Shown: positions 1 to 40,300 of the stretch, in pieces
Numbering within the stretch: the first letter of the stretch is position 1
Layout: each line of letters opens with the position of its first letter
Position numbers and translations under genes: made by a program
From: a virus
Taxonomy: Duplodnaviria > Caudoviricetes
IMG/VR virus record: IMGVR_UViG_3300030095_005132
Span: 1-64,000 of that record
Strand: one strand, 5' to 3'
DNA length: 64,000 nt
Notes under the pieces: model-generated
What the model was told of the DNA's origin: nothing
Database searches by the model: none
Seen by the model: only the letters and a program-made list of their open reading frames with translations

Positions 1-19
1 CAGTTTATGGGATTTTAAA

Positions 20-610
20 ATGAAATATTATGAGATATATAATAATGTAAGATTGTTTTTTTTAATGGGAATACTTTCTATATTTACACTAAGTTGTGAA
101 GATAATAGAGTAGAAGAGGTGGTATTAGAACCATCAATGGAAATGTGGGTAAATGGTGATCCAATAGATCCATTTACTTACTATGGTTCTATAACAACAT
201 TTGGACAGAAGAAACTTGGCGAGGATGGCAAGATTAAGAAGCTACTTGTATTTCACTTTCAAAGAGAAGTCGGTAGGGTATTACCTGAATTAGAACATTA
301 CGCTACTATATGGTATGACCAGGATGCCGAAGATAATGATAATTTAATAGATGAAGGTTTGTATTTAAATTATGGAGTTGAAGATACAGTTGATAGGGAT
401 AAAACTATAGATTTAGAAATTATAGGTAGTTTTGATTATACAGACTTTGGTCAAGCAGAGATAACAGAAGTTGAAGATAACAAAATATCTGGTATGGTAA
501 ATGGTCAGTTTTACAATCCATATAGAGATGAATTACAGATAGCATTATTAATTTTTGAGAACATAGAAATAGGAATGGATCCTGAGGGAACATTTTACAC
601 AGGCGAATAA
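20..610 (+). CDS. Putative lipoprotein
   Basis: Hydrophobic N-terminus ending in lipobox-like FTLSC; acidic beta-rich mature part. Confidence 0.6.
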   Translation: MKYYEIYNNVRLFFLMGILSIFTLSCEDNRVEEVVLEPSMEMWVNGDPIDPFTYYGSITTFGQKKLGEDGKIKKLLVFHFQREVGRVLPELEHYATIWYDQDAEDNDNLIDEGLYLNYGVEDTVDRDKTIDLEIIGSFDYTDFGQAEITEVEDNKISGMVNGQFYNPYRDELQIALLIFENIEIGMDPEGTFYTGE

Positions 611-613
611 TAT

Positions 614-1255
614 ATGAACGGTGATATTAAAATAGGCAAGTTGTTATGTGATGAGGATATCATTACAAAGAGACAATTAAATAAAGCTCTACAGGCTCAA
701 ATCAAAGGTGATAAAAGCACCATTGGTGAAATACTTGTAAAGATGAATTTCTGTTCCTTAGACGATATCACAGAGGTTATACTAAAGCAAGACGAGTTAA
801 AAGAACAACACAAAGAGCCAGAACCAGAACCAACACCCGAACCTGAGCCAGCTCCTAAAGTAGAACTCGTTGTTGAAGAACCGAAGAAAAAAGAACCCAT
901 AGAATTATCAGAGGACAAGGTTTTAGATACAAAATTTACATTATCTGTACAAACAATGATAGCAGCTGGAACAGGTCTGGCATCATTAATCGGTATGTGG
1001 TATACACTACAAGGAGAAATAGAAGAGGCAAAAGAATTACCAAGGATAGATATAGAATCAATTTTTGGAGATGAATATCCATCCAAACCCGATGGTCACA
1101 ACTGGCCACGGTCATATGAACAATACAAGAACCAAGTTGGTGGTCTACAAGAAGATATGGATGCTGTCTATGATATATTAGACGAGTATGAAGAAACTAT
1201 AAAAGAATTACAAAAGGACATCAAAGACCTTGAACGTAGAAAAAGGGACAAATAG
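614..1255 (+). CDS. MshEN-like (PilB/GspE N-terminal, c-di-GMP-binding type) domain membrane protein
   Basis: Two tandem 24-aa motifs KIGKLLCDEDIITKRQLNKALQAQ / TIGEILVKMNFCSLDDITEVILKQ, Pro-Glu linker, one TM helix, C-terminal coiled coil; no ATPase domain. Confidence 0.7.
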   Translation: MNGDIKIGKLLCDEDIITKRQLNKALQAQIKGDKSTIGEILVKMNFCSLDDITEVILKQDELKEQHKEPEPEPTPEPEPAPKVELVVEEPKKKEPIELSEDKVLDTKFTLSVQTMIAAGTGLASLIGMWYTLQGEIEEAKELPRIDIESIFGDEYPSKPDGHNWPRSYEQYKNQVGGLQEDMDAVYDILDEYEETIKELQKDIKDLERRKRDK

Positions 1256-1264
1256 GAGTTTATC

Positions 1265-1639
1265 ATGAGATTTATATTTACACTATTATTATTCCTGTCT
1301 GTTACATTTGGACAAGTAAATGACAAGAACTTTAAGGAAAAGATTAACGGTGGTGTGGTCGTAGCCGTCTTTACATCGGAGTGGCAAGAACAAGACTTAG
1401 ATGACAAGATACTAAAAGGAGTTGAGGGTTATCAGGATTGTGAAATAATATTTGTTGCTAGTGAGCAAGCAAAAAAGGTTGTTAAGAAATTAAGATTTAG
1501 AAACTTTCCATCGATAGCTTTATTCTTTGATGGAAGTAAAAAAGAAACTTGGAAAGCTGATATGGATGGTGAGGTTGATTGTTCTGCTAAAGACATTAAA
1601 GGCGCTATAGATGATATGTTAGCAGAGGATGTATTTTGA
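1265..1639 (+). CDS. Secreted thioredoxin-fold protein lacking CxxC
   Basis: Signal peptide; VVVAVFTSEW and RFRNFPSIALFFDG match Trx fold pattern but no Cys after W. Confidence 0.6.
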   Translation: MRFIFTLLLFLSVTFGQVNDKNFKEKINGGVVVAVFTSEWQEQDLDDKILKGVEGYQDCEIIFVASEQAKKVVKKLRFRNFPSIALFFDGSKKETWKADMDGEVDCSAKDIKGAIDDMLAEDVF

Positions 1640-1662
1640 TTGTATAAATATGATACAAGAAG

Positions 1663-1689
1663 TGTAACATTAATGTTCAGAATGTTACA
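1663..1689. promoter_or_regulatory. Perfect 9-bp inverted repeat, candidate enhancer/activator binding site
   Basis: TGTAACATT-N9-AATGTTACA, ~140-165 bp upstream of the sigma54-like promoter. Confidence 0.5.
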
Positions 1690-1723
1690 TATTTTTTTGA
1701 AAATAAATAAAATTATGTATAAG

Positions 1724-1757
1724 AAAAAGTCTTAAATATTATAAGACTTTTTTTTTA
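1724..1757 (+). terminator. Intrinsic terminator-like hairpin
   Basis: AAAAAGTCTTA-loop-TAAGACTTTTT followed by T run. Confidence 0.6.
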
Positions 1758-1825
1758 GCCCTCCTATCTTCAACAATATTAAAGTTTAAAAAATAATTTA
1801 AATTATTTTTTAAAAAACAGGTAGT

Positions 1826-1842
1826 TTGGTATAGTTTTTGTA
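1826..1842 (+). promoter_or_regulatory. Sigma54 (-24/-12)-like promoter of pilin cluster
   Basis: TTGGTATAGTTTTTGTA: GG-N10-GT, vs consensus TGGCAC-N5-TTGC. Confidence 0.55.
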
Positions 1843-1908
1843 CCTTATATAGTATAAGAACATACCATTCGGGTATGTGTTTTAATAAGTAATACAAGGA
1901 GAACTAAA

Positions 1909-2547
1909 ATGTTCAAATCCCTATTAAATAAAATAAAGAGTACTACTGGAAACTCTCTTGCAGAATTTGCAGTTACTACGGCTATGATGGCCACATTAGC
2001 AGCTACAGCCGCACCGCAATTCGGTAGTGTTGGTGAAGGAGCTAAAGAAAAGAAAACCATGAATAACATCGATAAGATTATTCAATCAGCTAACAACTTT
2101 TATAACGCTAAGTTAGATGAAGAAGGTCGTGGAAGATTTCCAGGTCAATCTAAGTATGATGCGAAAGTTGGTGGGTACGATTTACCAAGTGGTACTCAAA
2201 CTGATATTGCATTAGAAATCTTTACTGAAACAATCTTGAATAACTATGATGGGTATACAGATGATTTATCTTCTTTTGTATATGTGTTTGCACAAGCTGC
2301 AGATGACCAAGATGCAGTTCAAGGTGATTGGCATTCATTAGAATCATCAGTTGTTTATGATACTGATGGAGCAGCTGACTTCGTTAACCTATTTGCTAAT
2401 AATGGAATGTCCTCACCATATCAGGATGGAGCTTATATTTATTTAGTAATACCAGGAAGTGGTTCAGGTTCAAGTTCACAAGCACCTGCTATTATCGTAG
2501 CTGATGCTGAGAACCCAACAGAACTACATAAAACATTAGTACCTTAA
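1909..2547 (+). CDS. Type IV pilin/pseudopilin-like protein
   Basis: Basic leader, G|NSLAEFAVTTAMMATLAATAAP (E at +5, P22); SD AAGGAG. Confidence 0.8.
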   Translation: MFKSLLNKIKSTTGNSLAEFAVTTAMMATLAATAAPQFGSVGEGAKEKKTMNNIDKIIQSANNFYNAKLDEEGRGRFPGQSKYDAKVGGYDLPSGTQTDIALEIFTETILNNYDGYTDDLSSFVYVFAQAADDQDAVQGDWHSLESSVVYDTDGAADFVNLFANNGMSSPYQDGAYIYLVIPGSGSGSSSQAPAIIVADAENPTELHKTLVP

Positions 2548-2574
2548 TCAATAAAATCAAAAGGAGATATAGTC

Positions 2575-3003
2575 ATGTTTAAGAACAACAAAGGATTTAC
2601 ATTAATCGAATTAATTATGGTAACGATTATAATGGGTGTTCTAGCAGCAGTAGCTATCCCAAGATATATGAATACAGTAGTAAAGGCTGAAGAGGCCGCA
2701 GAAGATGCTGTAATCGGAGCTATCGAAGCTGGATTGAGTAACTATGCTGTAGAACAGATGATAGATAATGGTCGTAAAAGTTGGCCTACTCATCCATTTG
2801 AAGGATTGGAAGTAGTGCCTGTTGGTTACACTACAGATACAGATGATGCCGATACCGATGGTGAGTGGACATTTAACACCACGAACAATACCATTACTCA
2901 TCAAAGAAATGACAATTCACGAGTAAAGTGGGTATATGATAAGGGTGTTCAAACTGGTGATAACGCAGCAGTTGGTTCTATTAGCGCTAGGTCAAACTTA
3001 TAG
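2575..3003 (+). CDS. Type IV pilin (prepilin N-methylation motif)
   Basis: KG|FTLIELIMVTIIMGVLAAVAIPRY. Confidence 0.92.
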   Translation: MFKNNKGFTLIELIMVTIIMGVLAAVAIPRYMNTVVKAEEAAEDAVIGAIEAGLSNYAVEQMIDNGRKSWPTHPFEGLEVVPVGYTTDTDDADTDGEWTFNTTNNTITHQRNDNSRVKWVYDKGVQTGDNAAVGSISARSNL

Positions 3004-3014
3004 GGGAAGCTTCT

Positions 3015-3458
3015 ATGAAGAACTCAGCCGGGTTTACATTAGTTGAGGTAGTAGTGGCTATTGCATTGATGGGGATATTGATAGGAACCAGTGTCCCCAT
3101 TTACAATAATGTGATTACTAAAACTCAAATATCTGTTAACACATCTAATATGATAATTATAAAAGATACGTTTATGAGATATTTTAATGAAACTTACATG
3201 GACGGTAACCCGCAGCTACCAACATTACCACAAAACGCTTTATTAGATTCAACATATAATAATACAGAATTGTCAGATGGTAGAACACCAAATAATTTAT
3301 TTAATGGTGGATTACCTTTTAATTCTAATGGTAATCCTTATACTTATTATTGGGAAGCTGATACAAGCTCAAGTGGATTTATAACAAAAAAATTCTACAT
3401 AGAAGATTTAGATACGGACAGCCCTTCTTATGGAGAATTTGTAGTAGGAGAGATATGA
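3015..3458 (+). CDS. Type IV pilin-like protein
   Basis: AG|FTLVEVVVAIALMGILIGTSVPIY. Confidence 0.9.
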   Translation: MKNSAGFTLVEVVVAIALMGILIGTSVPIYNNVITKTQISVNTSNMIIIKDTFMRYFNETYMDGNPQLPTLPQNALLDSTYNNTELSDGRTPNNLFNGGLPFNSNGNPYTYYWEADTSSSGFITKKFYIEDLDTDSPSYGEFVVGEI

Positions 3459-3856
3459 TGCGAGGATACACATTAATAGAAATGCTAATAGTAATACTAT
3501 TGATAGGTATCCTCTCAACACAAGCAATACCAAGATATATGGAAAGAATAGCTTTAGAAGAATTAAAATCAGAAAAAAAATTTACATATCAGATATTTCA
3601 AGAATTGGAATTGTATGCAGAATATCAAAAGGAAAATACAGGAACAGAGAGTTGGCCAAGTAATCCATTATCTGTTTTAGGTCGTACAAGAGGTGTTATA
3701 GTTACAACTTCATTAGGAATACCTGATGAGGATAATGAGTGGCAATTTGATGGAACTAAACTATACCATAGGAGAATGAATAATGAAATTTGGTACTTTA
3801 TTTATAATGCTAGTACATTTTCATTTTCAGAAACTCCTGTTAAATTAACAAACTAA
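3455..3856 (+). CDS. Type IV pilin-like protein
   Basis: RG|YTLIEMLIVILLIGILSTQAIPRY; C-terminal WPSNP...DNEWQFD...HRRMNN resembles 2575..3003 (WPTHP...DGEWTFN...HQRNDN). Confidence 0.9.
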   Translation: MMRGYTLIEMLIVILLIGILSTQAIPRYMERIALEELKSEKKFTYQIFQELELYAEYQKENTGTESWPSNPLSVLGRTRGVIVTTSLGIPDEDNEWQFDGTKLYHRRMNNEIWYFIYNASTFSFSETPVKLTN

Positions 3857-3864
3857 GGTCGTAT

Positions 3865-4275
3865 ATGAAAAATATAGAAATTATAATATCAACATTAACT
3901 GTAATAATATTGGGATATATTTTGTATCCTAAAGAAGAGGTTAGGTTTATAGAGCCAGAGATACAAGATTACTTTGATGATTATCCAATAGAGTATTGGA
4001 AAGATACAGATAAGGGTGGTAATATAGTTTGGGTTAGATATAGAATACTACAAGACAATACTAAACTTTGGGTATTGGATAAGAATGGTGTTGTTATTCA
4101 TCAAGCACCATTTGAGTTGGATAGACACGATGATGGTAGAGATAGGATACACAAGTATAGGTGGAAATTGTATTTTACCGAATGGTCAGAAGATATAGAA
4201 CCGGGTGATTACCAAATAGTAGTTGGTAGTTTTTTAGTAAACACAACTAATTTGATAACTGAGATTACAATATGA
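3865..4275 (+). CDS. Membrane-anchored protein, possible Ig-like (FlgD-type) domain
   Basis: N-terminal TM; ...IEPGDYQIVV end motif. Confidence 0.5.
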   Translation: MKNIEIIISTLTVIILGYILYPKEEVRFIEPEIQDYFDDYPIEYWKDTDKGGNIVWVRYRILQDNTKLWVLDKNGVVIHQAPFELDRHDDGRDRIHKYRWKLYFTEWSEDIEPGDYQIVVGSFLVNTTNLITEITI

Positions 4276-4394
4276 GTTGGACTGCATTAGCTGTTATTTG
4301 TTTAGGAGCTTGTTTGGTATGGGAGCTAGATGAACAACAAATAATAAAAAAATATAAAAAGAAAAAGAGAATTGAACAACAGGAGAAAAAATGA
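4272..4394 (+). CDS. Small membrane protein (40 aa, not in ORF track)
   Basis: MSWTALAVICLGACLVWELDEQQIIKK...; ATGA overlaps with both neighbours. Confidence 0.6.
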   Translation: MSWTALAVICLGACLVWELDEQQIIKKYKKKKRIEQQEKK

Positions 4395-4750
4395 GATACT
4401 TACCTTTATTATTAATAAGTGTTATATTAGGACAAGATTCAACTGATGTTGAGTTGGATTTAGATGCTATGTGGGAAAATACCGTATGGGAAGAAATCCA
4501 AGATGTTACAGATGTTTATTATGAAGTGGAGTATGTTACAGCAGTTGCTGGTGTTCGTGGAGCAGAAGCTGAAGATGAGGCTCTAGCATTATTATATTAT
4601 AGAAAAAGCATGAAAGGATTATCCAGATTAGATTTACAAAAAGCTTTGGGTAAGCTTATTATCAAACGTGAGAAGATGTCTGATGATAGTGATACAAAAA
4701 AAATAGATGGTTATATTTTACAATTAAGAAGAAAATTAAAAAAAGTGTAA
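4391..4750 (+). CDS. Secreted hypothetical protein
   Basis: Signal peptide, SD AGGAG, TAVAGVRGAE motif. Confidence 0.6.
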   Translation: MRYLPLLLISVILGQDSTDVELDLDAMWENTVWEEIQDVTDVYYEVEYVTAVAGVRGAEAEDEALALLYYRKSMKGLSRLDLQKALGKLIIKREKMSDDSDTKKIDGYILQLRRKLKKV

Positions 4751-4756
4751 AAAAAA

Positions 4757-4790
4757 TTGTATTTGAGAATATATACATATATATATTAAT
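4757..4790 (+). promoter_or_regulatory. Class-3 promoter motif (TTGTAT...ATATATATTA)
   Basis: Same arrangement upstream of tRNA-Gly (20813-20846) and at 44371-44405; 3' part also before hsp20 (13580-13591). Confidence 0.45.
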
Positions 4791-4823
4791 GTATCAAATA
4801 CGATACAAATGTTTTTTGACAAT

Positions 4824-5240
4824 TTGAAAATTTGAAAAGTGCAGAGAGTAATTAACTCTGTATGGGATTGGTCGAATAATGAGTAGATGATGAAGCTCAT
4901 AAGACAATCTATCGAGAAGTTGTGGTGACTAACCTACCGCCTAATGTGGTGGTCATAAAAAACGGTTTCAAGACATATGACTCGAAATGTACTTTCAGAA
5001 ACTAAACGTTGATTCGTTGACCTTTTTATGGGTAAGGGTAAAACCGAAATCCCATCTTGTGGCTGAATAATTTAGTCTCAGAGAGATAAGGCAATATCAC
5101 AGACATTGTAGTCGCTCTAACGTAGAATTAACCATCTATTAGGAGAACCAGTATAACTTCTGGGTGATAGGTAAAAGGTAATAAAAATCTGAGCTGAAAG
5201 TTGTAGGTATTCAATAATCCTACATCCCCCTAATTTTCAA
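4824..5240 (+). ncRNA. Large structured ncRNA candidate (~417 nt), family unidentified
   Basis: No ORF; closing stem TTGAAAATT(4824)/AATTTTCAA(5232) and many nested helices; upstream promoter motif and downstream terminator. Confidence 0.7.
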
Positions 5241-5248
5241 TATTATAT

Positions 5249-5320
5249 AAAAAGGGTTCAACCGATTTTTAGTTTCCACTATACTTTAAACTTAAAAAAC
5301 TACAGAACCCTTTTTTTATT
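5249..5320 (+). terminator. Terminator-like long hairpin
   Basis: AAAAAGGGTTC ... GAACCCTTTTTTT. Confidence 0.55.
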
Positions 5321-5331
5321 TAAAAAAAACC

Positions 5332-5361
5332 TTGACTCGTATTGCAATTCTTTTGTATCTT
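5332..5361 (+). promoter_or_regulatory. Early sigma70-type promoter (copy 1 of 8)
   Basis: TTGACT-N18-TATCTT with conserved spacer yGTATTGCA. Confidence 0.7.
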
Positions 5362-5366
5362 CTTGT

Positions 5367-5504
5367 ATGATGAGAGAGACTTTAAGAATGATTTTGTTGA
5401 TGTTTGTTTTAATAACGGACAATGCTAGTTTCTTAAATCTTAAAAAAAATCAAAAAAAATTAAAAAAAGACTTGACTTGTATTACATTTAATGTGTATAT
5501 TTAG
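5367..5504 (+). CDS. Possible leaderless small ORF (45 aa)
   Basis: ATG 5 nt after -10 box; MMRETLRMILLMFVLITDNASF... Confidence 0.3.
   Translation: MMRETLRMILLMFVLITDNASFLNLKKNQKKLKKDLTCITFNVYI
5472..5501 (+). promoter_or_regulatory. Early sigma70-type promoter (copy 2)
   Basis: TTGACT-N18-TATATT. Confidence 0.75.
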
Positions 5505-5506
5505 GT

Positions 5507-7618
5507 ATGAAAAAAAGGGAAAATATGAAAGAAAAACTTAAAAACTTTAACCCGATGGCTCTCAGAGAGAAATACTCTGCTAGTAACATCACTAACAATT
5601 ATTCTTCCTTTTGGAGTGATAATGATGTTAGAAGAACTTCTATCTTTGATGAAGATGAGCCTGTTAAGAAGGGTGTTGATTTAGTTGCACTGGCTTCTTA
5701 TCGTAGAGCTATCAGTAACTTTGTTTCTATCGTAACTGGCAAATCTGATATAAAAGTTACCTTTAATGCGCACGGAGATAGTTATACCGATGGTAAATCA
5801 GTTGTTATATCTTCTAAATTAGATGATAAGTTATTTGATTCAACTGTTGGTTTGGCTCTTCATGAAGGTAGTCACATTAAACTTTCAGATTTTGATTTTC
5901 TAAAACAACTCAGAAATAATATTCCACAAGAATATGTTAGGAGAGCTGAAGTATTTGGTTGGAGCGAGTATGATGTAAAAGATAAAGTTAAAAACTTACT
6001 TAACTATGTTGAGGATAGACGAATTGATTATTTTGTCTTTTCAAATTCACCAGGCTACAAAGGTTATTATCATTCAATGTATGATAAGTACTTTCATTCT
6101 AAGATTATCGATAAGGCTTTAGTTACTGATGAATATACTGATAATGATTGGGATTCATACATTTTCAGAATCATTAACCTTACTAATAAAAATTCTAACT
6201 TAGACGCTCTACCAGGTCTCAGAGAAATTCACTCCCTTATTTTTAAGAATGTAAAAAATCTTAATTCTACAAAAGATGCTTTTGATGTCGCTCTTAAAAT
6301 ATTTCATATTATATTAGATAATGTAGATGTTAAACCTGCTGCTACTGATAATGAAAATAAAGATGGTCAGGAATCATCTGATGAGAAAGAATCTAATGAG
6401 AGTCAAAGTGCTAGTGATGGTGATGGTAATGGTGGTGAGGGTTCTGAGTCAATCTCTGATGAAGAATTGGATGATATGATTGAAAGTGGTCTTACAGAGG
6501 GTAATGGTAGTGGTGATAAAAAAGTTGAACTTACTCCTAATCAGAAAAAACAACTTGAAAACGCCATAAAGAAACAAAATAAGTTTATGGATGGTGATAT
6601 TCAGAAGAAGAAACTTTCTAAAAAAGATAAATCTTCAATAGATACCGTTGAAGCTGCGGGTATGAGTTATGTTGATGTTGCTGGTGCTACTGATACTTAT
6701 ACCGGTAAAAAAATTCCTACTAAAGTATTAATGGTTAAGAAATTCAACAAAGCTTTGGCTGAATCTGGCACTATCCGTATGATTCAAAATCCGGAATACA
6801 GATGGCACTCAGATGAATACAATGAAGCCATCAATAAAGGTTTAGTGATGGGAACTATCTTAGGTAAGAAACTTCAGGTGCGTGGTGAGACTCGTGAGAC
6901 TAAGTGGTCTCGTTTAGATAGTGGTCGTATTGATAAGAGATTAGTTGCTGAGCTTGGGTTTGGTAATGAGAGAGTTTTCAAAACCACTTTTGTAGAATCT
7001 TATTCAGATGCTTTTCTTCACATTTCTGTTGACGCCTCTGGTTCAATGGGTGGGGATAAGTGGACAAATACTCAGACTTCTGTTGCTGCGATAGCTAAGG
7101 CTTGTTCAATGATTCAAAATGTTGATTTGGTTATTTCTTACAGAAGTACACAGGACTCACAAAATGGTAGAGGTAAAGGAACTTACAGTCCACTAATGTT
7201 GATTGCTTATGATTCCAGAGTTGATAAGATTTCAAAGATTAAGAATCTGTTTCATCTACTTCAACCATCAGGTACCACACCAGAAGGTTTATGTTTTGAG
7301 GCTGTGATGAAGGAAATCGAAATGAGTTCTAATGATAAAGATTCTTACTTTCTAAATTTTTCTGATGGGATGCCAATGTTTCAAAATGATGATGTGAGTT
7401 ATTATCATGACACCGCTATTAATCACACCGCTAAAATGGTTAAAGACATTCGTAATCGTGGTGTTAAGGTTCTTAGTTACTTTATCGGTGGTAGATATGA
7501 TTATCGTGATGAAAAACAAACATTCACAAAAATGTATGGTAAGGGAGCTGCTTTCGTTGATGTAACTTCGGTACTGGCTGTTGCTAAAACAATGAACAAA
7601 CTATTCTTGGAGAAATAA
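5507..7618 (+). CDS. CobT-like protein: N-terminal HExxH metallopeptidase-like domain + C-terminal VWA domain
   Basis: ALHEGSH, NYVEDRRID, acidic linker, MIDAS VDASGSM, GTTP, FSDGMP; SD-led start at 5525. Confidence 0.85.
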   Translation: MKKRENMKEKLKNFNPMALREKYSASNITNNYSSFWSDNDVRRTSIFDEDEPVKKGVDLVALASYRRAISNFVSIVTGKSDIKVTFNAHGDSYTDGKSVVISSKLDDKLFDSTVGLALHEGSHIKLSDFDFLKQLRNNIPQEYVRRAEVFGWSEYDVKDKVKNLLNYVEDRRIDYFVFSNSPGYKGYYHSMYDKYFHSKIIDKALVTDEYTDNDWDSYIFRIINLTNKNSNLDALPGLREIHSLIFKNVKNLNSTKDAFDVALKIFHIILDNVDVKPAATDNENKDGQESSDEKESNESQSASDGDGNGGEGSESISDEELDDMIESGLTEGNGSGDKKVELTPNQKKQLENAIKKQNKFMDGDIQKKKLSKKDKSSIDTVEAAGMSYVDVAGATDTYTGKKIPTKVLMVKKFNKALAESGTIRMIQNPEYRWHSDEYNEAINKGLVMGTILGKKLQVRGETRETKWSRLDSGRIDKRLVAELGFGNERVFKTTFVESYSDAFLHISVDASGSMGGDKWTNTQTSVAAIAKACSMIQNVDLVISYRSTQDSQNGRGKGTYSPLMLIAYDSRVDKISKIKNLFHLLQPSGTTPEGLCFEAVMKEIEMSSNDKDSYFLNFSDGMPMFQNDDVSYYHDTAINHTAKMVKDIRNRGVKVLSYFIGGRYDYRDEKQTFTKMYGKGAAFVDVTSVLAVAKTMNKLFLEK

Positions 7619-7619
7619 A

Positions 7620-7772
7620 ATGAGTTTCAATGCTTACAGTAAAAAAACAAGAAATAAACTTGAGATAATTCTGGCAGAACACATTAAACAAATTAGAAGG
7701 TCAATGCCTTGGTCAGGTGAGAATACTCACATCGTTAAAAAAATAATGAAATTATTTAGAGAAACTACTTGA
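7620..7772 (+). CDS. Small hypothetical protein (50 aa)
   Basis: SD GGAG, MSFNAYSKKTRNKLEIILAEH... Confidence 0.5.
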   Translation: MSFNAYSKKTRNKLEIILAEHIKQIRRSMPWSGENTHIVKKIMKLFRETT

Positions 7773-7798
7773 CTTGTATTGCAATTATTTTGTATATT
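7769..7798 (+). promoter_or_regulatory. Early sigma70-type promoter (copy 3)
   Basis: TTGACT-N18-TATATT. Confidence 0.75.
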
Positions 7799-7803
7799 CA
7801 TAT

Positions 7804-7995
7804 ATGACAAACGGAGAAAAAATGAAGAAGTTAAAAAATACTAAAAAAACAAAAAAAACTGATATTGGTTATGGGGTTAAAAAAATAGCCCTTACTGATA
7901 TGAAAAAAGATAATGTGATGTTCGATGACTTGGATGGGTACTTCGGTAATCCTACTGATGAATTAGATAAATTAGTTGAAGATTTTTTAAAATAA
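7804..7995 (+). CDS. Hypothetical protein
   Basis: Start at 7804 or SD-led 7822; listed start 7774 lies inside the promoter. Confidence 0.6.
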   Translation: MTNGEKMKKLKNTKKTKKTDIGYGVKKIALTDMKKDNVMFDDLDGYFGNPTDELDKLVEDFLK

Positions 7996-7998
7996 GTC

Positions 7999-8028
7999 TT
8001 GACTCGTATTGCATTTTTTTTGTATATT
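7999..8028 (+). promoter_or_regulatory. Early sigma70-type promoter (copy 4)
   Basis: TTGACT-N18-TATATT. Confidence 0.75.
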
Positions 8029-8033
8029 AAGGT

Positions 8034-9242
8034 ATGAGAAATGAGAGATTCACTAACAATTCAAATCAAAAAAAAGGAAAAAAAGATATGAATAAAAAAG
8101 TAGTTCAAATAATAAAATCAGGCAATAGGTTTAATGCTTGGGATGCTGATGGTAATAAATATACATCACAAATTTCTAATGGTACTCGAAAGAGTGCTTT
8201 CAATACCAATATGGCTCTTGAACAAAGGGTTAATAAAAATGGTAAAACCTTTTGGTGGAAAGTTCCAATGTCAGAATTTGAGGCTAGTTCAGCTCCTGTC
8301 ATTGATGTTTCATCAGTTGATGTTCCTACAGAACATGCTGAGGTTCTAAATTTCATTCACTCTTCTTATAGTCTCAAACCACAAGGTTTGGTTATGAAAG
8401 AATTGAAGTGGAAGTATTTAGTTCGTTCAGCCGTTAGAGGTAAGAACATTTTGATGACAGGTCCTGCTGGATGTGGAAAAACTATGGCGGCTAAGTCATT
8501 GGTTAATTCGCTAGATAGGGCTGACTTCTACTTTAATTTGGGTGCGACACAAGACCCCAGAGCCACTTTGATTGGTAATACTCACTTCGATAAGAAGAAA
8601 GGTACTTACTTCTCTGAGGCTTTGTTTGTCAAAGCAATTCAGACTCCTAACGCTGTTATTCTGTTAGATGAGTTGAGTCGGGCTCATCCAGATGCTTGGA
8701 ATATTCTGATGACAGTATTAGATAGTGGTCAGAGATATCTTCGTTTGGATGAAGGTGAAGGTCAGGAAACCATCAATGTGGCTGATGGTGTTACTTTCGT
8801 TGCTACCGCTAATGTAGGTAATGAGTATACTTCTACCAGAGTTATGGATAAGGCTTTGATGGATAGATTCATTATTGTAGAAATGGATGTTTTGACTTCT
8901 GATGAAGAACATGGGTTGTTGAACTATATGTTTCCACATGTTGATTCAGAACTTCTAAAGTCTGTTGCTGAGATTTCTTCCGCAACTCGTAGTGAGTCAA
9001 AGTCTGAGGCTGGTAGATTGTCTGCTGGAATTTCAACCAGAACTTCTGTTGAGATTGCTGGACTTCTCTTTGATGGTTTCGGATTAGATGAAGCGGCTGA
9101 AGTAACTGTCTATCCTCAGTTTTCTGATGATGGTGGGCTTGAGTCTGAAAGAACCTATGTGAAGCAGCTTGTACAGAAGTATGTTTCTGATGGTTCTTCC
9201 GATGACTTGTTCAATGAAGATGAAGTTGAGAATGCTAACTAA
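8034..9242 (+). CDS. MoxR/CobS/CbbQ-type AAA+ ATPase
   Basis: Walker A GPAGCGKT, Walker B ILLDELSR, ATAN, ALMDRF; partner of upstream VWA protein; SD-led start 8088. Confidence 0.9.
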   Translation: MRNERFTNNSNQKKGKKDMNKKVVQIIKSGNRFNAWDADGNKYTSQISNGTRKSAFNTNMALEQRVNKNGKTFWWKVPMSEFEASSAPVIDVSSVDVPTEHAEVLNFIHSSYSLKPQGLVMKELKWKYLVRSAVRGKNILMTGPAGCGKTMAAKSLVNSLDRADFYFNLGATQDPRATLIGNTHFDKKKGTYFSEALFVKAIQTPNAVILLDELSRAHPDAWNILMTVLDSGQRYLRLDEGEGQETINVADGVTFVATANVGNEYTSTRVMDKALMDRFIIVEMDVLTSDEEHGLLNYMFPHVDSELLKSVAEISSATRSESKSEAGRLSAGISTRTSVEIAGLLFDGFGLDEAAEVTVYPQFSDDGGLESERTYVKQLVQKYVSDGSSDDLFNEDEVENAN

Positions 9243-19563: not shown

Positions 19564-19965
19564 GGGGCTGTCATGGTTTCGACAGGTGTTTTTTGAAAAT
19601 AAAGTGCAACGGAGATTGAGTAGGTCTCGCTAAAAAAGACTCAACAAACTCAAATGGCGATAATTCGCTAGACGGGTTGGTCATTGATTGGCACCTAGCT
19701 GAGTATGATTACTCACCTATGGTTGCTGTCACTAATGACGAACCAACTTACGCTTACGCTTAAGTTACTGAGTTGTCTAACACTCGGTCATAAAATAAGT
19801 TAGACACCAACTCCTCATGTTATGAGTATAAAAGAACATACGGATCTATCCAAGAAAATAGTTGGTGTGTTGCAGGTACTGTCTCAGAGGGTTGGAACCT
19901 GATAAGTTGTGAATGACTTTTTTGATAAGACAGACTGGACAGGGGTTCGATTCCCCTCAGCTCCA
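19564..19965 (+). ncRNA. ssrA: tmRNA
   Basis: 5' GGGGCTGTCATGGTTTCGAC; 3' T-arm AGGGGTTCGATTCCCCT and CAGCTCCA giving Ala acceptor with G3.U70; internal tag ORF ending YAYA-stop; CCA not encoded. Confidence 0.93.
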
Positions 19966-19983
19966 CAAAATTAAGGAAATAAA

Positions 19984-20846: not shown

Positions 20847-20918
20847 GCGGAGGAAGTGTTATAGGAAACACACTTCCTTTCCAAGGAAGAGATGTTGGTT
20901 CGACTCCAATCCTCCGCT
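20847..20918 (+). tRNA. tRNA-Gly (anticodon TCC)
   Basis: Acceptor GCGGAGG/CCTCCGC, D stem GTGT/ACAC, anticodon arm CTTCC-TTTCCAA-GGAAG, T loop TTCGACT, U73; CCA not encoded. Confidence 0.92.
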
Positions 20919-20976
20919 CAAAATTTTGGCCAGCTAGGCTATTTACTAATTGATAATTAAATAAAGAGAGTACCAC

Positions 20977-34027: not shown

Positions 34028-34342
34028 ATGCCATACACACAAGAGGAATTAAAAAACCTATCATTTTATCAAAATTTAATTGATGAGGATGAACAACAAT
34101 ACCTACAGAGAAGAGATTTGCTTAGGCTGCAATCCACTATTTCAGGATCAGCTGCTGCAGACAATCTCTTATCTAGAGATAAGGATGGAGCTGTTTTAAT
34201 TTTTGAAAATCCATATAGCGATAGCTTAGTTGAGGATGATTCTTCAAAACTTATTCATAATACTACAGTAAAATTATTGAAAACAACAGCGACTGATACT
34301 ATTATAGATGAGGTATTAGATAGGGATTTTGGGGAGTTATAG
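34028..34342 (+). CDS. Hypothetical protein
   Basis: ORF in structural operon. Confidence 0.6.
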   Translation: MPYTQEELKNLSFYQNLIDEDEQQYLQRRDLLRLQSTISGSAAADNLLSRDKDGAVLIFENPYSDSLVEDDSSKLIHNTTVKLLKTTATDTIIDEVLDRDFGEL

Positions 34343-37300
34343 TGGCTAGTAAATTAACAGAAAAACAAAAACAATTACTTGATGCTAACATTAGTACTAG
34401 AGTAGGTCAAAAGCCTTATGAGGATGGTTTGTGGGGTGAGCAAGGAAATAAAGACTTTGTTCATTTACAATTATTTGACGAAAGTAATAATCTTATAGAA
34501 TTTAAAAGTGTTCCATCTTCAGAATTTGTTATAAACACAGATAATAATAACATTGAATTTTATCCTGGTAGACATATTAGAGAATTGGGATATCAGAGTG
34601 GCGTCTTTAATATAAAATATAACTTTTTAAGAAAATTAGCAGGTGATGAGATGCCTGTGTTGTTACATACAATACAAAAAAATGATACAAAAGTTGGTGA
34701 TGTTTATACCAATATGAATGCAATATATGTAACAGAGGACTCTTTAGTTTATGCTGCTACAGAAGAAGATTATAAAAATAATCCCACCACTACTGAGCAA
34801 TTGTCTATAGAAGATTTAACATATCAAATTGATACTATATCACCAAGCAGAACTGAAGTAAGATTAAAATCTAAAAAAATAAATGGATCGTATCAAGATG
34901 ATTTTATCGATTTACAAACTGCTATAATACTAAAAGAAGTTCAGAATAAGATTAGTTTTATAGGTGGAACGCTGTATGATTCTACACAATTAATTTTAAC
35001 TTTAGAATCTTCTGGATTTTTATTTACGAAAAAAATGGTTGGTGGAACAATCACAATACCTAATGTTTTTCAAGTAAATCAAATTGATGTTCCTGTAAAG
35101 ACAAATATAAATATAGTTCAAAATCCTGCAGGAGATTTAATTGAAACCGATAATCTTGGTAATACATTAAATATTGCAACTCAAAATGAATGGGATGAAA
35201 GTTTACACGATAACGCTATTAGAGCAACACATTGGAGTGATGGGTTTGTTAATCACACAGGCACATTTGCTGGAACAGCACATATAGGTTATCACGCATA
35301 TTGGGTTGCAGAAGAAGGTAAAGGTGGGGGAAGCTGTATAAAATTTACAGATCAAAATGAACTTTTTATAGATTTACCTGAATGGCCTAATGAACAGAGA
35401 TACAGGCCTCTACTGATAACGCAGGAGATAACAAACTTGTTAGGCCAGGGTGTTACTCATAATGATATAGCTAATATAAATTTTGATATAAGAAGTACAG
35501 TTGCTAACAAGGGTGTTGAGATATCTTTAAGATATGCAGACGAAGTTTTGGTTGAAGAACAACCTCAGAATCCTCCCCCTGGATTTTTTGATCCCAGCAA
35601 CCCACAACCAACTGAAACACAACCAACCTCTCCACCAGCTGGTTATGAGCCTGCCGATTCTGCAGCAGCTAATGCTATAGAACAACAACCACCGATGAGC
35701 GAATTTGGTATAAGAGAGTTATATGGTGATTCTGTTCCCGTACCTCTTGATATTGCAGAGGGTGATGACACTACAGTTTGGGGTGGAGCAGGAGCTTGGG
35801 TTGTAACTATATTTCAACCAGAAAGACCAAGTCAAAAATATACTTGGGGTGTTAATACAGATGTTGTAGGTAATATGATGCATGGTGAATTGAGTAATGA
35901 AGAAGAATGGGTTTGGAATGCTTATTCTGAGGTGTGGACTGTTAATCCCAATCTTGCAAATTCTTTGATTGCTCCCGATGGTACAAGTGGTAAACCTAAT
36001 GCAGTTAATTATCATCCTGCTCAAATACAAGGTCAGGGTAGAGCTTATTATGAAAGAACTACCAATCGTGGTCAAAACTTAGGATGGCAAACGATGACAG
36101 TGATTGGTGATGCAAAAGTATTGTTATTCAAAGATGATTTAATTTGGGAACAAAGGCACGATCGAGGTGACTTAGATAAATTTTATTTTTACGAATTTGA
36201 CCAATATTTTCCGGCAGTGCGTAATACTGTTTTAAATGCTGGAACGGATGAAGAAAAAACCTTATATGATGATATCTTTCAGAATGGTTTTATTCAAACT
36301 GTTACAAGGGTTGGTAAGGGTAGAAATGATGGTACATATCATAATATGTTTTTAATATTTTATAATAACGGCGATACAAATGCTAGCGGCCAGATGGATG
36401 AATCGTCAAATAGATTTTTTTACATCACAACCTATGCTGGAACTTTGGATAATAGTGGAACAAATCAAGTACACAGCTATCCTAATCACGAGGGAGTAAG
36501 TACACCTTTACATTTTTTAAAAGATTTCGATGGTGGTGTGAATCAAAATGTTATTTCCAATGAAGGTAAGATGGAGTGGTGGTTTAAAGAAGATGATGGT
36601 TACACTAGGTATTACATAGCCACCGGTACAGAATATTACGCTACCAACGAAGGAGATGATGCTGGAACAGATGGTGGTCTTTATGATAATAGCATTGACA
36701 GTTACTATCCGGCACCATTAGGAGATGGTTTCGGTGATACATTGGCTAATGGTGTCGATTGTGCGGTTGGTCCGGTTGGGGGTTTTGGTAGATATAGATA
36801 TATCATTGGAGATCGTCAATATAGAGCAAAGGGTTCTGCAGCTGATGGTACGGATCGCGATAAATCTTTAAATGATGTTTTTTTCAGATGTGGTGAGGTA
36901 ATAAATCAAAATGGGGATTCTGTAACATTTGGTGTTAGGAATCCATCCGCAACGAACTACGGTGTATTTGGTGATTTTGCTGATGCCGGTGAGCTTACTG
37001 AAGCTGATGTAACACCGGTTTATGACAATGGTTTAGGTGAATATGATTTTCCTGATAATCCTCTTCAGATAGGAGTTCTTAGCGAAGGAGAAAATTGGGT
37101 ATGGGATGGAAGCCAATGGAATGACAATTCTCTTAACCCACCAAGATACAATTATAAATCTCCACCATCAACAAAACAGATACTTGCTCCAGAAATAGCT
37201 GGTGAGTGGATAAATGTGAGTGCTCAAATACCTATACCAAGTGATTGGTTGCTTGGACAAAAATGGTATTTACAAATTTATGGTAGTGGTAAGAGCCAAA

Positions 37301-40300
37301 GTGGGGCTATGGAACAAGGTATAGTATGGGTAGATAATGTATATGTAGATTTTACCCTTAGAGAACAATCACAGACTATACCTGTATATAAATCCTATTC
37401 TGCACAAATACAAAACGTGTCGTCTGATGGATCTATAATCACTGTAAATAAAACCATAAGGGACGTGGCTGTAGAAATAGGAGCAAACGATGATGATGAG
37501 GATGGTAATCCCGATATATATAATCAACCAGAGGTTGGTGATTTTGATGATTTTAGATTATCTTATACGAATTTAAATCCAAGAGATTTAAGAACTTATT
37601 TAAAATTTGAAAATAATTTGTTTTTAACTACAAATTTTAAATCAGATAGAGTTTCTGTAACATCTTTTCCTTATTCCATAGTCTATAAGTTATACGAACC
37701 TCTGCCAGATAATTATGAAAAATTTGATGAATGTATTGTAGTAAAAGAGATGGCAGACCCATTAGAAGAAAAAATTAAAATAATAGATTTTGTTAATGCG
37801 GAAGAACCTAAATTGGTTCTTAAAACTCCTGATTTAAATAATGTAGAAAGTCCGGTTCAAAGAAGGCAGACCAAGTTTCAAACTGAGTCTGAAATTTTAA
37901 CTTCTGATGCAGCTGTTTCTACCGCATTGAGAAGTGAATTTTTAAGTCAAAGTTTAGATAGTGTAAATATAAATACAGACTACTCTAGATTTGAAAATTT
38001 TGTAAACTTTGGTTCAGCTGAAGTTAGGATTAGAAATTTTAAAAGAAAATTAGAAGATATAGAACAATACAAAATCAATAGTGCTTCTTATGCTGGCGTA
38101 AGCGGTTCTTCGGGAGATATGAGCACTTATCATTATAAAATAATTGATACTGAGAATAAATTTGATAGATTTGAAAATTATATGTATTTTAAAAGCTCTT
38201 CTTATGTAAGCAGCTCGATTGGAATATTTCACGACAACGCATGGCCTAAAGCTAGTGGTGATGGAACATTAAACAGTCCTTATGTTTTAGCACATACAAC
38301 ATCATCACAAGCTGATACTTGGTTTGTAAATGCTGTAAATTCTGCATCTTTATATGATGATGACAACTCATCTAAGCTGAGTACTATACTTCCAGAACAT
38401 ATTAAGGTTGATACAAAAAATGATACATACCTAAAATTTATAGATATGATAGGTCAACATTTTGATGGTATATGGGAATATATAAATGCTGTAACCGATG
38501 TTTCAGATAGAAGGGAAAGTTTAGATGAGGGTATTTCAAAAGACTTATTATATTCTGTTGCTAAATCTTTAGGTTGGAATTTAAATGACGGAAAAGATTT
38601 AATTAGCTTATCTAAGTTTGCATTGGGTAAAGAAGTTACCGGCTCCTCTTTTTCTAACTACTCCACAACTTCAGAAAGAGATGTGTCGAGAGAAATTTGG
38701 AGTCGTATAATAAATAACATGCCATTTTTCTTAAAGAATAAGGGTACTGTTAGAGCTTTGAAAGGGTTAATAAATGTTTATGGAATACCATCTACAATTT
38801 TAAGAGTTAAGGAATATGGTGGACCTGATTTATCAGATGATGCTTCTCCTCAGTTTGAAATAACAAGAAAATTTACAAAAGCTTTAGATTTTAAAGGTGC
38901 TCAATATGTAAAGGTTGGGTGGACTGATGATTTAGAATCACAGAGAAAGCCTGATACTGTAGAATTTAGGTTTAGAGCTGCTACCGGTTCAAATCAAATC
39001 CTTGTAGAGAAGCAGGATATTAATAATCAAGATTGGTTCATAAGGTTAAAAGATAATGGTTCATCCGATAACTATGGTCAGGTTTCATTTATGTTATCAG
39101 GCTCTGCTGTTGGACAGGATATCGGTCAGTTTAAAGAAATAACATCAACATCTTTACCTATATATGATGGTGATTTTTATTCTGTTATGGTTGCTAGAAC
39201 ATCTGGAAGTAGCAATACTGCAGTATCACAATCGTACCAATTAAATGTTGGCAAGTATGATGCTAGTAGAAGTAAAATACACTTATATAGTACATCGACT
39301 ATGGATGTAACACAAGCAGCTTCTTCATCTTTTAGTAACGCGTGGACGGGTAGTGGTGATATTTACATCGGTGGTTCTGGTAGTATAGATGATGTTGGTG
39401 TACAATTTAGTGGTTCTATAATGGAATACAGGCATTGGACAGAAACATTAAATACATCATCATTTAAGAATCACATAGCTAATCCAAAAGCTTATGATGG
39501 AAATACTGTGTCATCATCTTATAGCAACTTAGTATTAAGATACTCCTTTAATGATGATAAGGATTTAACTTCTGATGTAGAGGGTATACGAGATGTTAGT
39601 TCAAACCAAACACAAACCGTATCAGGATCTCACAGTGGATTTACAGGAAACTTTTTTAGAAGCGTGGTTGATGAACAGAAAACCCACATACCAAGCATAG
39701 GTGCTTTAAGAAGAACTACGAATAAAATTAGATTAGAAGATAATAAAATAAAGCAAGGATTTAATTTAAATTCAGAACACAGAGCTACTGTAAGTGCTTA
39801 TGATACTGCACCAAGTGACTCTAATAAGGTTGGTATATGGTTTGCGCCAACGGATGTTATCAATACCGACATTATTAACTCAGTTGGTAATTTAAATTTT
39901 GATAATTATTTGGGTGATCCAAGAGATAAACAAGAGCTAAGTTATAGGGGTTTAGAGAATATAGCTGATAATTATTGGAAAAAGTATAACTCACCAAATA
40001 ATTTTTGGGATTACATTAGAATGATTAAATATTACGACCAATCATTGTATCCTCAAATAAGGAAATTAATACCAGCTAGATCAAAACCTGATATTGGGTT
40101 GTTAATTGAGCCAAATATATTTGAGAGACCAAAAGTTATTGTTGGAAAAGAACCAACCGCCGAAGATAGATTTTTTAGTTCTTCTATAAATATACCAAAT
40201 GAGGTTATTATTGTAACTGGTTCTTATAATGCTGGATTTAGTATTAGTGATTATGATTCTTATACTGGAAGAATTGATATATTTAGTTATGATTCTGGCT

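Follow-up and report, generated by a model that had tools for sequence, protein, structure and literature searches.

A phage-borne cassette of four type IV pilins with a −24/−12-type promoter and an associated MshEN-like membrane protein in an uncultured marine myovirus lineage

Pili are common receptors for phages and also function in adhesion, motility, and DNA uptake. pilA promoters that depend on sigma-54 and PilR are known in bacteria, e.g. in Pseudomonas and Myxococcus; in sigma-54 promoters, the C of the −12 element is near-invariant and the GG of the −24 element is essential. In F10-like Pseudomonas aeruginosa phages, the host pilus incorporates a FimU encoded by the prophage (P-FimU), which keeps out phages that bind the pilus tip; virulent or non-temperate phages can also carry PilA-like genes (PMC12952977). 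Here, we present an analysis of a cassette of four consecutive pilin genes, its upstream control region, and the nearby gene for a membrane-anchored MshEN-like protein in a 64,000-nucleotide stretch of DNA (the window), which represents bases 1-64000 of the linear IMG/VR record IMGVR_UViG_3300030095_005132 (94,232 bases) of an uncultured myovirus. Phage-encoded pilus subunits are already known; what is new is the four-gene set, its sigma-54-style promoter with repeats, and the association with a membrane-tethered MshEN-like protein.

The cassette resembles P-FimU and the phage PilA-like genes in that a phage carries pilus-subunit genes without the machinery and in that the proteins are highly diverse (PMC12952977). 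A tblastn search of isolated phages with pilin 2 of the cassette returned the same Pseudomonas phages, with similarity over the N-terminus only; the corresponding searches with pilin 1 and with the MshEN-like protein gave no match. However, these published cases are single genes that are clearly similar to the host subunit, whereas the marine cassette is a four-pilin unit for which no close cellular counterpart was found. The P-FimU work showed that replacement of a subunit takes place and that it serves exclusion among phages. The marine cassette also differs in having a dedicated −24/−12-type promoter and a repeat cluster and in being carried by an uncultured marine myovirus of ~185 kb. In the literature, we found no description of a marine phage pilin cassette; overlap with the phage PilA-like groups in the supplementary tables of the P-FimU paper is possible.

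The four pilin genes are as follows (the slash marks the predicted cleavage site; aa, amino acids; N_methyl and TIGR02532, profile scores explained below):

1909-2547, + strand: pilin 1, 212 aa, leader of 14 aa, G/NSLAEF; atypical, major-pilin-like
2575-3003, + strand: pilin 2, 142 aa, leader of 7 aa, G/FTLIE; N_methyl 32.2 bits, TIGR02532 30.7 bits
3015-3458, + strand: pilin 3, 147 aa, leader of 6 aa, G/FTLVE; N_methyl 34.1 bits, TIGR02532 24.2 bits
3455-3856, + strand: pilin 4, 133 aa, leader of 4 aa, G/YTLIE; N_methyl 24.3 bits, TIGR02532 27.8 bits

All four open reading frames (ORFs) encode pilins. An earlier note, made from the letters of the window, had recognized four consecutive prepilins, and direct reading confirms this: each ORF starts with a short, basic leader that ends with Gly(−1), has Glu at +5, and continues with ~20 hydrophobic residues, with G(−1) and E(+5) in 4/4. 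When hidden Markov models were used (Pfam N_methyl PF07963 with a cut-off of 21.2 bits and NCBIfam TIGR02532 with its own cut-off), pilins 2-4 scored over the cut-offs, while pilin 1 matched no curated model of Pfam or NCBIfam; among the members of its family, 0/24 matched one. The start of pilin 4 and the stop of pilin 3 overlap by 4 nucleotides (nt), and pilins 2 and 4 are paralogs that share the motifs SWP..NP...GR.R...PDEDNEW in family alignments. None of the four pilins contains a cysteine, and pilin 2 has an Asp-rich loop.

Pilin 1 was assigned by profile comparisons. Its family profile matched Geobacter PilA (E 4.5e-4) and MshA (E 9e-3) in the PDB, and hhalign aligned it to the pilin 2 family over 124 columns (probability 94.7%, E 6e-8). 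Pilin 1 retains G(−1), E5, and P22; at position +1, the window has N where relatives have Q or A. Its gene has a strong ribosome-binding site (AAGGAG), and the mature protein would have 198 residues, of which those at both ends are conserved and residues ~85-150 are hypervariable in the alignment. The AlphaFold2 model of pilin 1 is poor (predicted local distance difference test score [pLDDT] 60), and Foldseek run on that poor model gave no match. The model of pilin 2 (pLDDT 83) consists of a 56-residue N-terminal helix (residues 10-65) and a four-strand sheet. In a wide structural search with this model, the top 10 matches were all pilins or pseudopilins at modest Z scores (3.9-5.7), including MshA, PilA4, GspH, GspK, and PilE; the top 4 Foldseek matches were Neisseria pilins, all weak (E 0.055-0.33). 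None of the class-specific equivalog models (GspG, ComGC, Myxococcus PilA, GspH, and others) scored over its cut-off for any of the pilins, and the best of them, GspG, gave 42.1, 26.7, and 26.9 bits for the three small pilins, over the N-terminal region only, vs a cut-off of 88.85. Predicted as a complex after removal of their hydrophobic N-termini, the three small pilins scored 0.01 vs a mark of 0.32, a result that weighs neither way.

The 269 nt between the preceding gene, which encodes a thioredoxin-like protein, and pilin 1 contain the following features:

1663-1697, + strand: inverted TGTAACA pair, 9-nt arms, 9-nt spacer, then a T-run; terminator-like hairpin
1721-1755, unstranded: second hairpin with A-run and T-run flanks, bidirectional and terminator-like; −12.8 kcal/mol, z −4.68, 0/200 shuffles as stable
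1785-1814, unstranded: A+T palindrome of 30 nt, 100% complementary, between the repeat cluster and the promoter element
1827-1842, + strand: promoter element TGGTAT-N5-TTGTA, with GG at 1828-1829 and GT at 1840-1841
1846-1857, + strand: TATATAG-type box, conserved, 0-3 nt downstream of the −12 element; where the start is expected, or a −10-like box
1860-1878, + strand: small hairpin in the presumed 5' leader of pilin 1; weak (−9.4 kcal/mol, z −2.05)

The promoter element is tied to the pilin genes. TGGTAY-N5-TTGTA has a single exact match in the 64 kb of the window. In 870,582 bases comprising the window and a first set of relatives (54 loci with 52-92% identity, from an IMG/VR scan with the MshEN-like protein), it has 26 exact matches, of which 24 are located 33-86 nt before the ATG of pilin 1; the remaining two are the reverse reading of a palindromic copy and a match before a homolog of cobT. 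This last copy (L029:18699) is of the pilin type and lies ~100 nt upstream of the cobT homolog, at a place where the window has sigma-70-like promoters and a manA RNA. A second set of relatives came from a scan with the pilin 2 family (140 relatives, 80 kept); both sets together provided a promoter pool of 88 loci with 65 distinct upstream sequences. A variant of the element is present in 63/65 of these: 52 have TGGTAY..TTGTA, 1 has TGGCAC..TTGTA, 4 have TAGTAC..TTGTA, 3 have the canonical sigma-54 sequence TGGCAT-N5-TTGC(A/T), and 3 have TGGCAT..TTTTC, while 2 have an unrelated upstream sequence. In L127, L137, and L091, the upstream region has ATGCA/TGCAT palindromes in place of the −24/−12 element. 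GG and the −12 G are always the same number of nt apart, whereas the TATATAG box can be shifted by 0-3 nt. In one relative (G005), the element is located 77 nt before the ATG with TGTAACA upstream, even though the cassette there is ~22 kb from the three-gene group that precedes it in the window. Thus, the regulatory unit travels with the cassette.

Two other readings of these bases were rejected. The TATATAG box does not represent a generic late promoter, as it is not enriched before other genes of the window; the other intergenic promoters of the window are sigma-70-like (TTGACT-N17/18-TATATT). Nor is the element a symmetric operator: the GG on the left hardly varies, whereas its mirror positions, which follow TTGTA, are not conserved and can be C, T, or G.

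Upstream of the element, TGTAACA or its variant TGATACA occurs 110-170 nt away in two or three copies, direct or inverted. The hexamer GTAACA is present in 23/23 distinct upstream regions of the first relative set vs 16% of random 260-nt windows, and the TGTAACA sites are present also in relatives with the canonical promoter. The 1663-1697 region is the only intergenic cluster of TGTAACA-type sites in the window; the repeat was matched to no known activator. A perfect palindrome had been claimed at 1663-1689; however, this stretch consists of two perfectly complementary 9-nt arms set 9 nt apart (fold of −11 kcal/mol, followed by a T-run), not of a perfect 27-nt palindrome, and is better read as two conserved TGTAACA copies that also form a terminator-like hairpin. 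Because two hairpins with T-runs follow the preceding three-gene group, the pilins would form a separate transcription unit.

The earlier note had called the promoter sigma-54-like. In favor of this, GG-N10-GT is conserved as a −24/−12-type element with upstream repeats; however, the window copy has GG-N10-GT where a strict sigma-54 test asks for GG-N10-GC, and thus is without the canonical −12 C. The best evidence that sigma-54 is intended comes from the series of variants that grades into the canonical consensus. The order of repeats, A+T-rich spacer, −24/−12 element, and major-pilin-like gene first is, judged by this arrangement, that of an enhancer-dependent promoter, and we infer that sigma-54 is used at the element. 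The layout shares with sigma-54/PilR-dependent pilA promoters the major pilin in first position, the invariant GG-N10-G(C) spacing, repeats ~110-170 nt upstream, and A+T-rich DNA between; it differs in that the window has TGGTAT-N5-TTGTA vs TGGCAC-N5-TTGCA, with the canonical form in 3/65 relatives. As a candidate enhancer-binding protein, we considered the CobS-like AAA+ protein of the phage, to which the only Sigma54_activat match belongs; however, it was rejected because this match is generic (27.3 bits) and the protein has no GAFTGA loop. The Sigma54_activat control matched in all 14 control genomes.

The MshEN-like protein, o614, is encoded by the middle gene of the trio upstream of the control region:

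20-610, + strand: lipoprotein-like protein, 196 aa, with a signal sequence that ends in ...LSC; first of a conserved trio
614-1255, + strand: membrane-anchored MshEN-like protein (o614), 213 aa, tandem MshE-type motif at residues 6-59
1265-1639, + strand: secreted thioredoxin-like protein, 124 aa, without active-site cysteines; third of the trio

In canonical MshEN domains, two tandem 24-residue motifs are arranged in a 24+5+24 pattern, and the key residues are the RLG motif starts, the turn Gly, the 5-residue spacer, and the closing Gln (PMC5013675). In o614, the tandem motif is followed by a Pro/Glu-rich linker, a hydrophobic helix (~108-132), and a conserved C-terminal part of ~80 residues with a coiled-coil-like end. 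NCBIfam NF053729, a model of the MshE-related motif for cyclic di-GMP (c-di-GMP), covers o614 residues 6-59 at all 53 of its positions with 39.5 bits vs a cut-off of 38. A profile of the N-terminal 64 residues built from 18 family members matched Thermus PilF (E 2.2e-11), Geobacter PilB (9.8e-10 and 2.7e-8), and Vibrio MshE (8e-5) in the PDB. In contrast, Pfam MshEN PF05157 had no match in o614 even at E≤10 and none anywhere on the record. Moreover, canonical residues deviate: motif 1 has a K-I-G start, D for the turn glycine, and a closing Q; the spacer between the motifs has 6 residues, not 5; motif 2 has R-T-L-G in most relatives, which is one residue extra, the turn G (N in the window), a closing Q, N, or S, and a displaced Arg. 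The tandem MshEN motifs seen earlier therefore stand by the NF053729 and PDB profiles but not by Pfam, and because the motif departs from the canonical pattern, o614 is only a putative c-di-GMP binder. Sub-threshold matches to DUF4388 were found in 18/18 members of the o614 family.

In having two tandem 24-residue motifs at the extreme N-terminus, o614 is like MshE, PilB, and PilF as described by Wang et al. (2016; PMC5013675). It differs from them in lacking the ATPase and in having the Pro/Glu linker, one membrane helix, and the ~80-residue C-terminal region. That this is a stand-alone protein, as proposed from the letters alone, is borne out by a length-blind phmmer search of 1.8 billion representatives, which gave 302 matches at E≤0.001: full-length relatives are all ~200-220 aa long, and longer matches, i.e. 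multi-repeat DUF4388 proteins, share the N-terminal motif alone. The NfrB glycosyltransferase of Escherichia coli reportedly has an MshEN domain outside the pilus ATPases; NfrB had a weak sub-threshold match to o614 residues 6-64 (E 0.098). Like NfrB, o614 has an MshEN-type motif on a membrane protein; however, it is without an enzymatic or other recognizable output domain.

The trio is kept in nearly all of the 54 o614 loci. Most related loci have a homolog of the lipoprotein-like gene adjoining that of o614 (42 matches over the full length), and the thioredoxin-like gene is conserved after o614 in 48 loci. The lipoprotein-like protein has no Pfam, PHROG, or NCBIfam match, and the Thioredoxin match of the third protein is weak (E 0.0038, below cut-off). 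The MshEN-like protein is a lineage-conserved companion of the cassette; because the trio and the pilins would be separate transcription units, a role together with the pilins is only putative.

No component of the assembly machinery was found with these genes. The absence of PilB, PilC, PilD, and secretin genes, which had been noted for the window, extends to the whole 94-kb record; T2SSE, T2SSF, peptidase A24, and secretin models gave nothing over cut-off there, and they were over cut-off in 0/6 large lineage records. Two of these records (125.6 and 130.4 kb) jointly reach ~128 kb upstream (G002) and ~73 kb downstream (G001) of the o614 gene, a span of ~200 kb that exceeds the expected genome; because the records are fragments from different strains, the absence of the machinery is strongly suggested and not proven.

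The cassette is present in more than 100 IMG/VR contigs. In the second relative set, 74/80 loci have a pilin 1 homolog and 20/80 have o614 within 6 kb. The number of pilins varies: often there are four, a sub-lineage (L021, L049, and L051) has two, and others have three or five; in G005 and G069, the cassette is ~22 kb from the trio. Two annotated genes follow the pilins:

3865-4275, + strand: small membrane protein (o3865), 136 aa; after the last pilin in many relatives, including L021, L049, L051, L036, and L072
4391-4750, + strand: secreted protein, 119 aa, signal-peptide-like N-terminus; usual last gene of the cassette, after the pilins in most loci

A tiny membrane ORF lies between the two. 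A reading of o3865 as a fifth pilin was rejected, as hhalign gave only 6% to the pilin 4 family; the protein encoded at 4391-4750 has no family match in Pfam, PHROG, or NCBIfam. Together, positions 20-4750 form an unbroken + strand run of genes for envelope-type proteins. Some relatives (L021:10992-11642, L008, L051, and L029) have, between the thioredoxin-like gene and the cassette, a gene for a 216-aa membrane protein with a POPDC-like cyclic-nucleotide-binding domain (cNMP_binding, 56 bits), which the window lacks; this would be a second second-messenger-type domain in the cassette neighborhood. Upstream of the trio, many relatives have, at a place beyond the 5' end of the window, genes for a conserved protein of ~430 aa with a signal peptide (L013:8645-9940) and for a 96-aa membrane protein (L013:8333-8623), neither of which has a family match; with the trio and the cassette, they make up a long block of envelope-directed genes.

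The locus is also unusually diverse. Pilin 1 has 3755 protein clusters (90% identity) at E≤0.001, mostly on very short contigs, and relatives are, in the median, 52% identical to the window in pilin 1, 67% in o614, and 87% in CobS. Downstream of o614, 25 of the 54 related contigs stop within 3 kb, vs 5 that stop as close on the upstream side, which is the pattern of a hypervariable island at which assemblies break.

The carrier is a myovirus, as had been stated. CheckV estimates the record to be ~51% complete, which implies a genome near 185 kb. All large ORFs of the window are on the + strand, and tblastn and PHROG matches place the record among myoviruses with a T4-like baseplate: for the baseplate wedge protein, identity is 50% with Microcystis phage Mel-JY01, 42% with a 484-kb uncultured phage, and 40% with Flavobacterium phage immuto. 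An SbcC-like nuclease and a pair formed by a CobT-like VWA protein and a CobS-like AAA+ protein complete this context. At the DNA level, positions 1-8000 of the window had no match among isolated phages. The CobT-like protein (703 aa, 5507-7618) is paired with the CobS/MoxR-like protein (402 aa, 8034-9242), and upstream of the CobT-like gene is a manA RNA motif (5027-5228, +; RF01745, 65.9 bits vs a gathering score of 55.2). This manA stretch has the highest contig depth of run X20 (172), and run X19 has ~120 there vs 412 at 2601-2800; positions 4790-5251 are swapped for other sequence in some strains. Farther on, the window has a gene for transfer-messenger RNA (tmRNA) at 19564-19968 (+) that fits the full Rfam model RF00023 (93.6 bits) as the standard one-piece type, neither alpha nor cyanobacterial permuted; ARAGORN also called it, with an unusual tag ending in AYA. 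It adjoins a tRNA-Gly (TCC) gene at 20847-20919 (+). Two giant ORFs are present in the structural region, at 34342-41025 (2227 aa) and 49378-59559 (3393 aa).

The cassette starts ~600 bases from the 5' end of the contig. A chimera is excluded by a gene order that recurs in dozens of independent contigs, by an even G+C content (0.30-0.36 throughout, 0.332 in the first 4 kb), and by contig pieces that bridge 1608-2148 and 2304-3742: contigs from DNA runs of two studies have no differences across 1608-2148 and 1-3 differences across 2304-3796. Across related phage contigs, gene order is conserved with phage genes on both flanks. At least half of the sampled words of positions 600-4300 were present in 18 DNA runs from 8 studies of marine, riverine, and other aquatic metagenomes, one of these runs possibly being the source sample. 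Two metatranscriptome libraries, from two studies, yielded near-identical contigs (0-1 differences) that fall on pilin 3 and the beginning of pilin 4 (3111-3261, 3200-3450, and 3319-3469), and one of the libraries also yielded a contig on o3865 (3979-4138, 0-1 differences) and, at a depth of 60, a divergent version of the N-terminus of pilin 1. The RNA runs had no contig cover at 601-800 (one run) and 1001-1800 (both); as these are contigs, this gap is uninformative. For the same reason, and because DNA can occur in RNA libraries, the RNA contigs are a mere hint of expression.

As to the host, the sole species-representative genome with an o614 relative is a metagenome-assembled genome (MAG) labelled Candidatus Pelagibacter, in which the relative is on a 71.9-kb contig resembling a co-binned phage fragment. 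SAR11 as donor of the pilins or as host was rejected: pilin 2 matches Pelagibacterales pilins over the N-terminus only (22/61 genomes), there is no similar promoter motif near six such pilin genes, the Sigma54 DNA-binding domain was found in 0/41 genomes, and BLAST found nothing similar to the o614 N-terminus in the N-termini of five PilB-like proteins of Pelagibacterales (E > 0.3). MshEN is present in PilB-sized ORFs of 18/41 genomes of that order, and in one of its genomes, at least 8 pilin-like genes of ~160-180 aa stand in tandem (G018:C1:163689-167256). Should the promoter be used by sigma-54, the host would lie outside the order of that MAG and probably would not be a cyanobacterium either, as a Synechococcus control had no Sigma54_DBD match. 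In the ESM Atlas cluster of pilin 2 relatives, the commonest phylum is Fidelibacterota (FCB group), with the phylum known for 4/258 members; this fits the Flavobacterium phage relative and is only a lead.

Altogether, the interpretation in the earlier note, in which the phage feeds its own pilins into the pilus machine of the host, is partly supported by these data. The reading that we lean towards, as somewhat probable, is that the locus is a phage-borne pilin module, that the machine of the host assembles the pilins so that the pilus of the infected cell is specified by the phage, and that exclusion of other phages is the first-choice purpose. A large subunit that is hypervariable and major-pilin-like would be joined in the module by three small canonical pilins, all transcribed from the module's own −24/−12-type (sigma-54-style) promoter with the TGTAACA cluster upstream. 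Because the phage lineage appears to be without prepilin peptidase, ATPase, platform protein, and secretin, maturation and polymerization could be accomplished only by the filament machine of the host, which may be a type IV pilus or a related system. During infection, the peptidase of the host would cut the four prepilins between G(−1) and the following residue, the three small pilins would prime assembly, and the large pilin 1 would form or decorate the fiber. The infected cell would then show a phage-specified pilus surface, either replacing its own or mixed with it. This model is in keeping with the four pilins, the lack of machinery genes in the records searched, the dedicated and conserved control region, and the hypervariable exposed part of pilin 1, which is the first and best-translated subunit. 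The likeliest benefit would be altered binding to the pilus, above all by competing pilus-dependent phages, i.e. superinfection exclusion by subunit replacement. We place exclusion first because of the analogy to P-FimU and because of the diversity pattern; by this analogy, it is the most likely purpose.

Several observations weigh against this reading or parts of it. With regard to the promoter, the window element has T for the −12 C and also a T after GG, four relatives have AG for GG, and the same bases can be read as a poor sigma-70 promoter (TTGGTA, 16 nt, TATAGT; 9/12); in addition, no enhancer-binding protein of the phage was found. With regard to o614, the motif is only 1.5 bits over the cut-off, with D for the turn glycine, a 6-residue spacer, and a displaced Arg, and its gene is outside the pilin transcription unit and not always adjacent to it, being ~22 kb away in two relatives. 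The contigs from RNA libraries cannot prove transcription. In the order of the MAG, Sigma54_DBD is over cut-off in 0/41 sampled genomes and GGDEF is present in 1/41; either this bin misleads, or neither the sigma-54 nor the c-di-GMP reading is right.

Alternatively, the cassette may provide a gain of function, in which the pilus is re-tooled for the virocell, e.g. for DNA uptake as a source of nucleotides, particle attachment, buoyancy, or escape from grazers. A complete set of one major-like and three small pilins with E5 kept in all of them suggests a working fiber, the enhancer-style promoter suggests conditional control, and the cyclic-nucleotide-binding protein of some relatives together with the conserved MshEN-like protein suggests signal-dependent surface behavior. 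However, there is no pointer to a specific pilus function (genes for DNA uptake were neither seen nor searched for), and the hypervariable center of pilin 1 and the assembly breaks fit a surface arms race better. We therefore consider such a gain of function unlikely.

A little less likely again is a bolder version in which the locus is a full re-programming kit. In this version, the four-pilin set would be under a copied and still-tuned sigma-54/enhancer-binding switch of the host (from TGGCAT..TTGCA to TGGTAC..TTGTA), the tethered MshEN-like protein would seize ATPase docking or c-di-GMP control of the host, and an abundant marine host with rpoN, possibly of the FCB group, would, only under one particular signal of its own, show a pilus specified by the virus.

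It has also to be considered that the pilins jam the machine instead of serving it: as dominant-negative subunits, and with the membrane-bound MshEN-like protein as a decoy, they would poison the pilus or type II secretion of the host, and the receptor would be lost. An MshEN-like protein that is tethered and without ATPase could compete with the domain at the N terminus of the host ATPase, and truncated PilA-like proteins of Pseudomonas phages have been proposed as assembly inhibitors in the P-FimU report (PMC12952977). On the other hand, a poison has no need of four different pilins and a hypervariable exposed region, E5 is kept in all four pilins and P22 in pilin 1, and the MshEN gene is a separate transcription unit that is sometimes 22 kb away. 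This makes jamming improbable in our view.

We regard as more improbable still that the subunits feed a pseudopilus of the type II secretion type or another non-pilus filament of the host, which might, e.g., export envelope proteins of the phage. GspG gives the best partial equivalog matches of the small pilins, yet far below cut-off like all GspG-type models, and the ESM Atlas clusters of the small pilins bear the automatic name "GspG C-terminal domain-containing". Structural comparison put GspH and GspK among the best matches but MshA, PilA4, and PilE as well (Z 4.4-5.7), so these matches do not discriminate. The lack of cysteines, the Asp-rich loop of pilin 2, and the neighboring genes for a lipoprotein and secreted proteins would fit a pseudopilus, while a hypervariable pilin 1 of 198 mature residues is unlike a periplasmic pseudopilin. 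An artefact, i.e. a host fragment mis-assembled onto a phage contig or silent cargo, can be dismissed: although the cassette lies ≤4 kb from the 5' end of the contig and is a point at which many related contigs break, many independent contigs share its gene order, flanked by phage genes on either side, the G+C content is uniform, matching contig pieces of two studies span the junctions, and there is conservation of reading frames, ribosome-binding sites, and regulatory motifs.

We thus favor a phage-borne pilin module that is assembled by the host. Pilus subunits carried by phages have been published as single genes, chiefly from temperate phages of cultured pathogens; here, an entire set of pilins and its own enhancer-type control region are fixed in a very abundant and highly microdiverse lineage of marine myoviruses. 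The cassette can also serve as a marker in the search for the host, which has to encode a prepilin peptidase, a filament machine, and, probably, rpoN, and the promoter series represents a natural mutational ladder for recognition of the −12 element. If the sigma-54 reading is true, this would be a rare gene set of a lytic-type phage that relies on sigma-54 of its host. If the host assembles the pilins, ocean viruses would rewrite a major organelle of the cell surface, and competition between phages, attachment to particles, and gene transfer would be affected.

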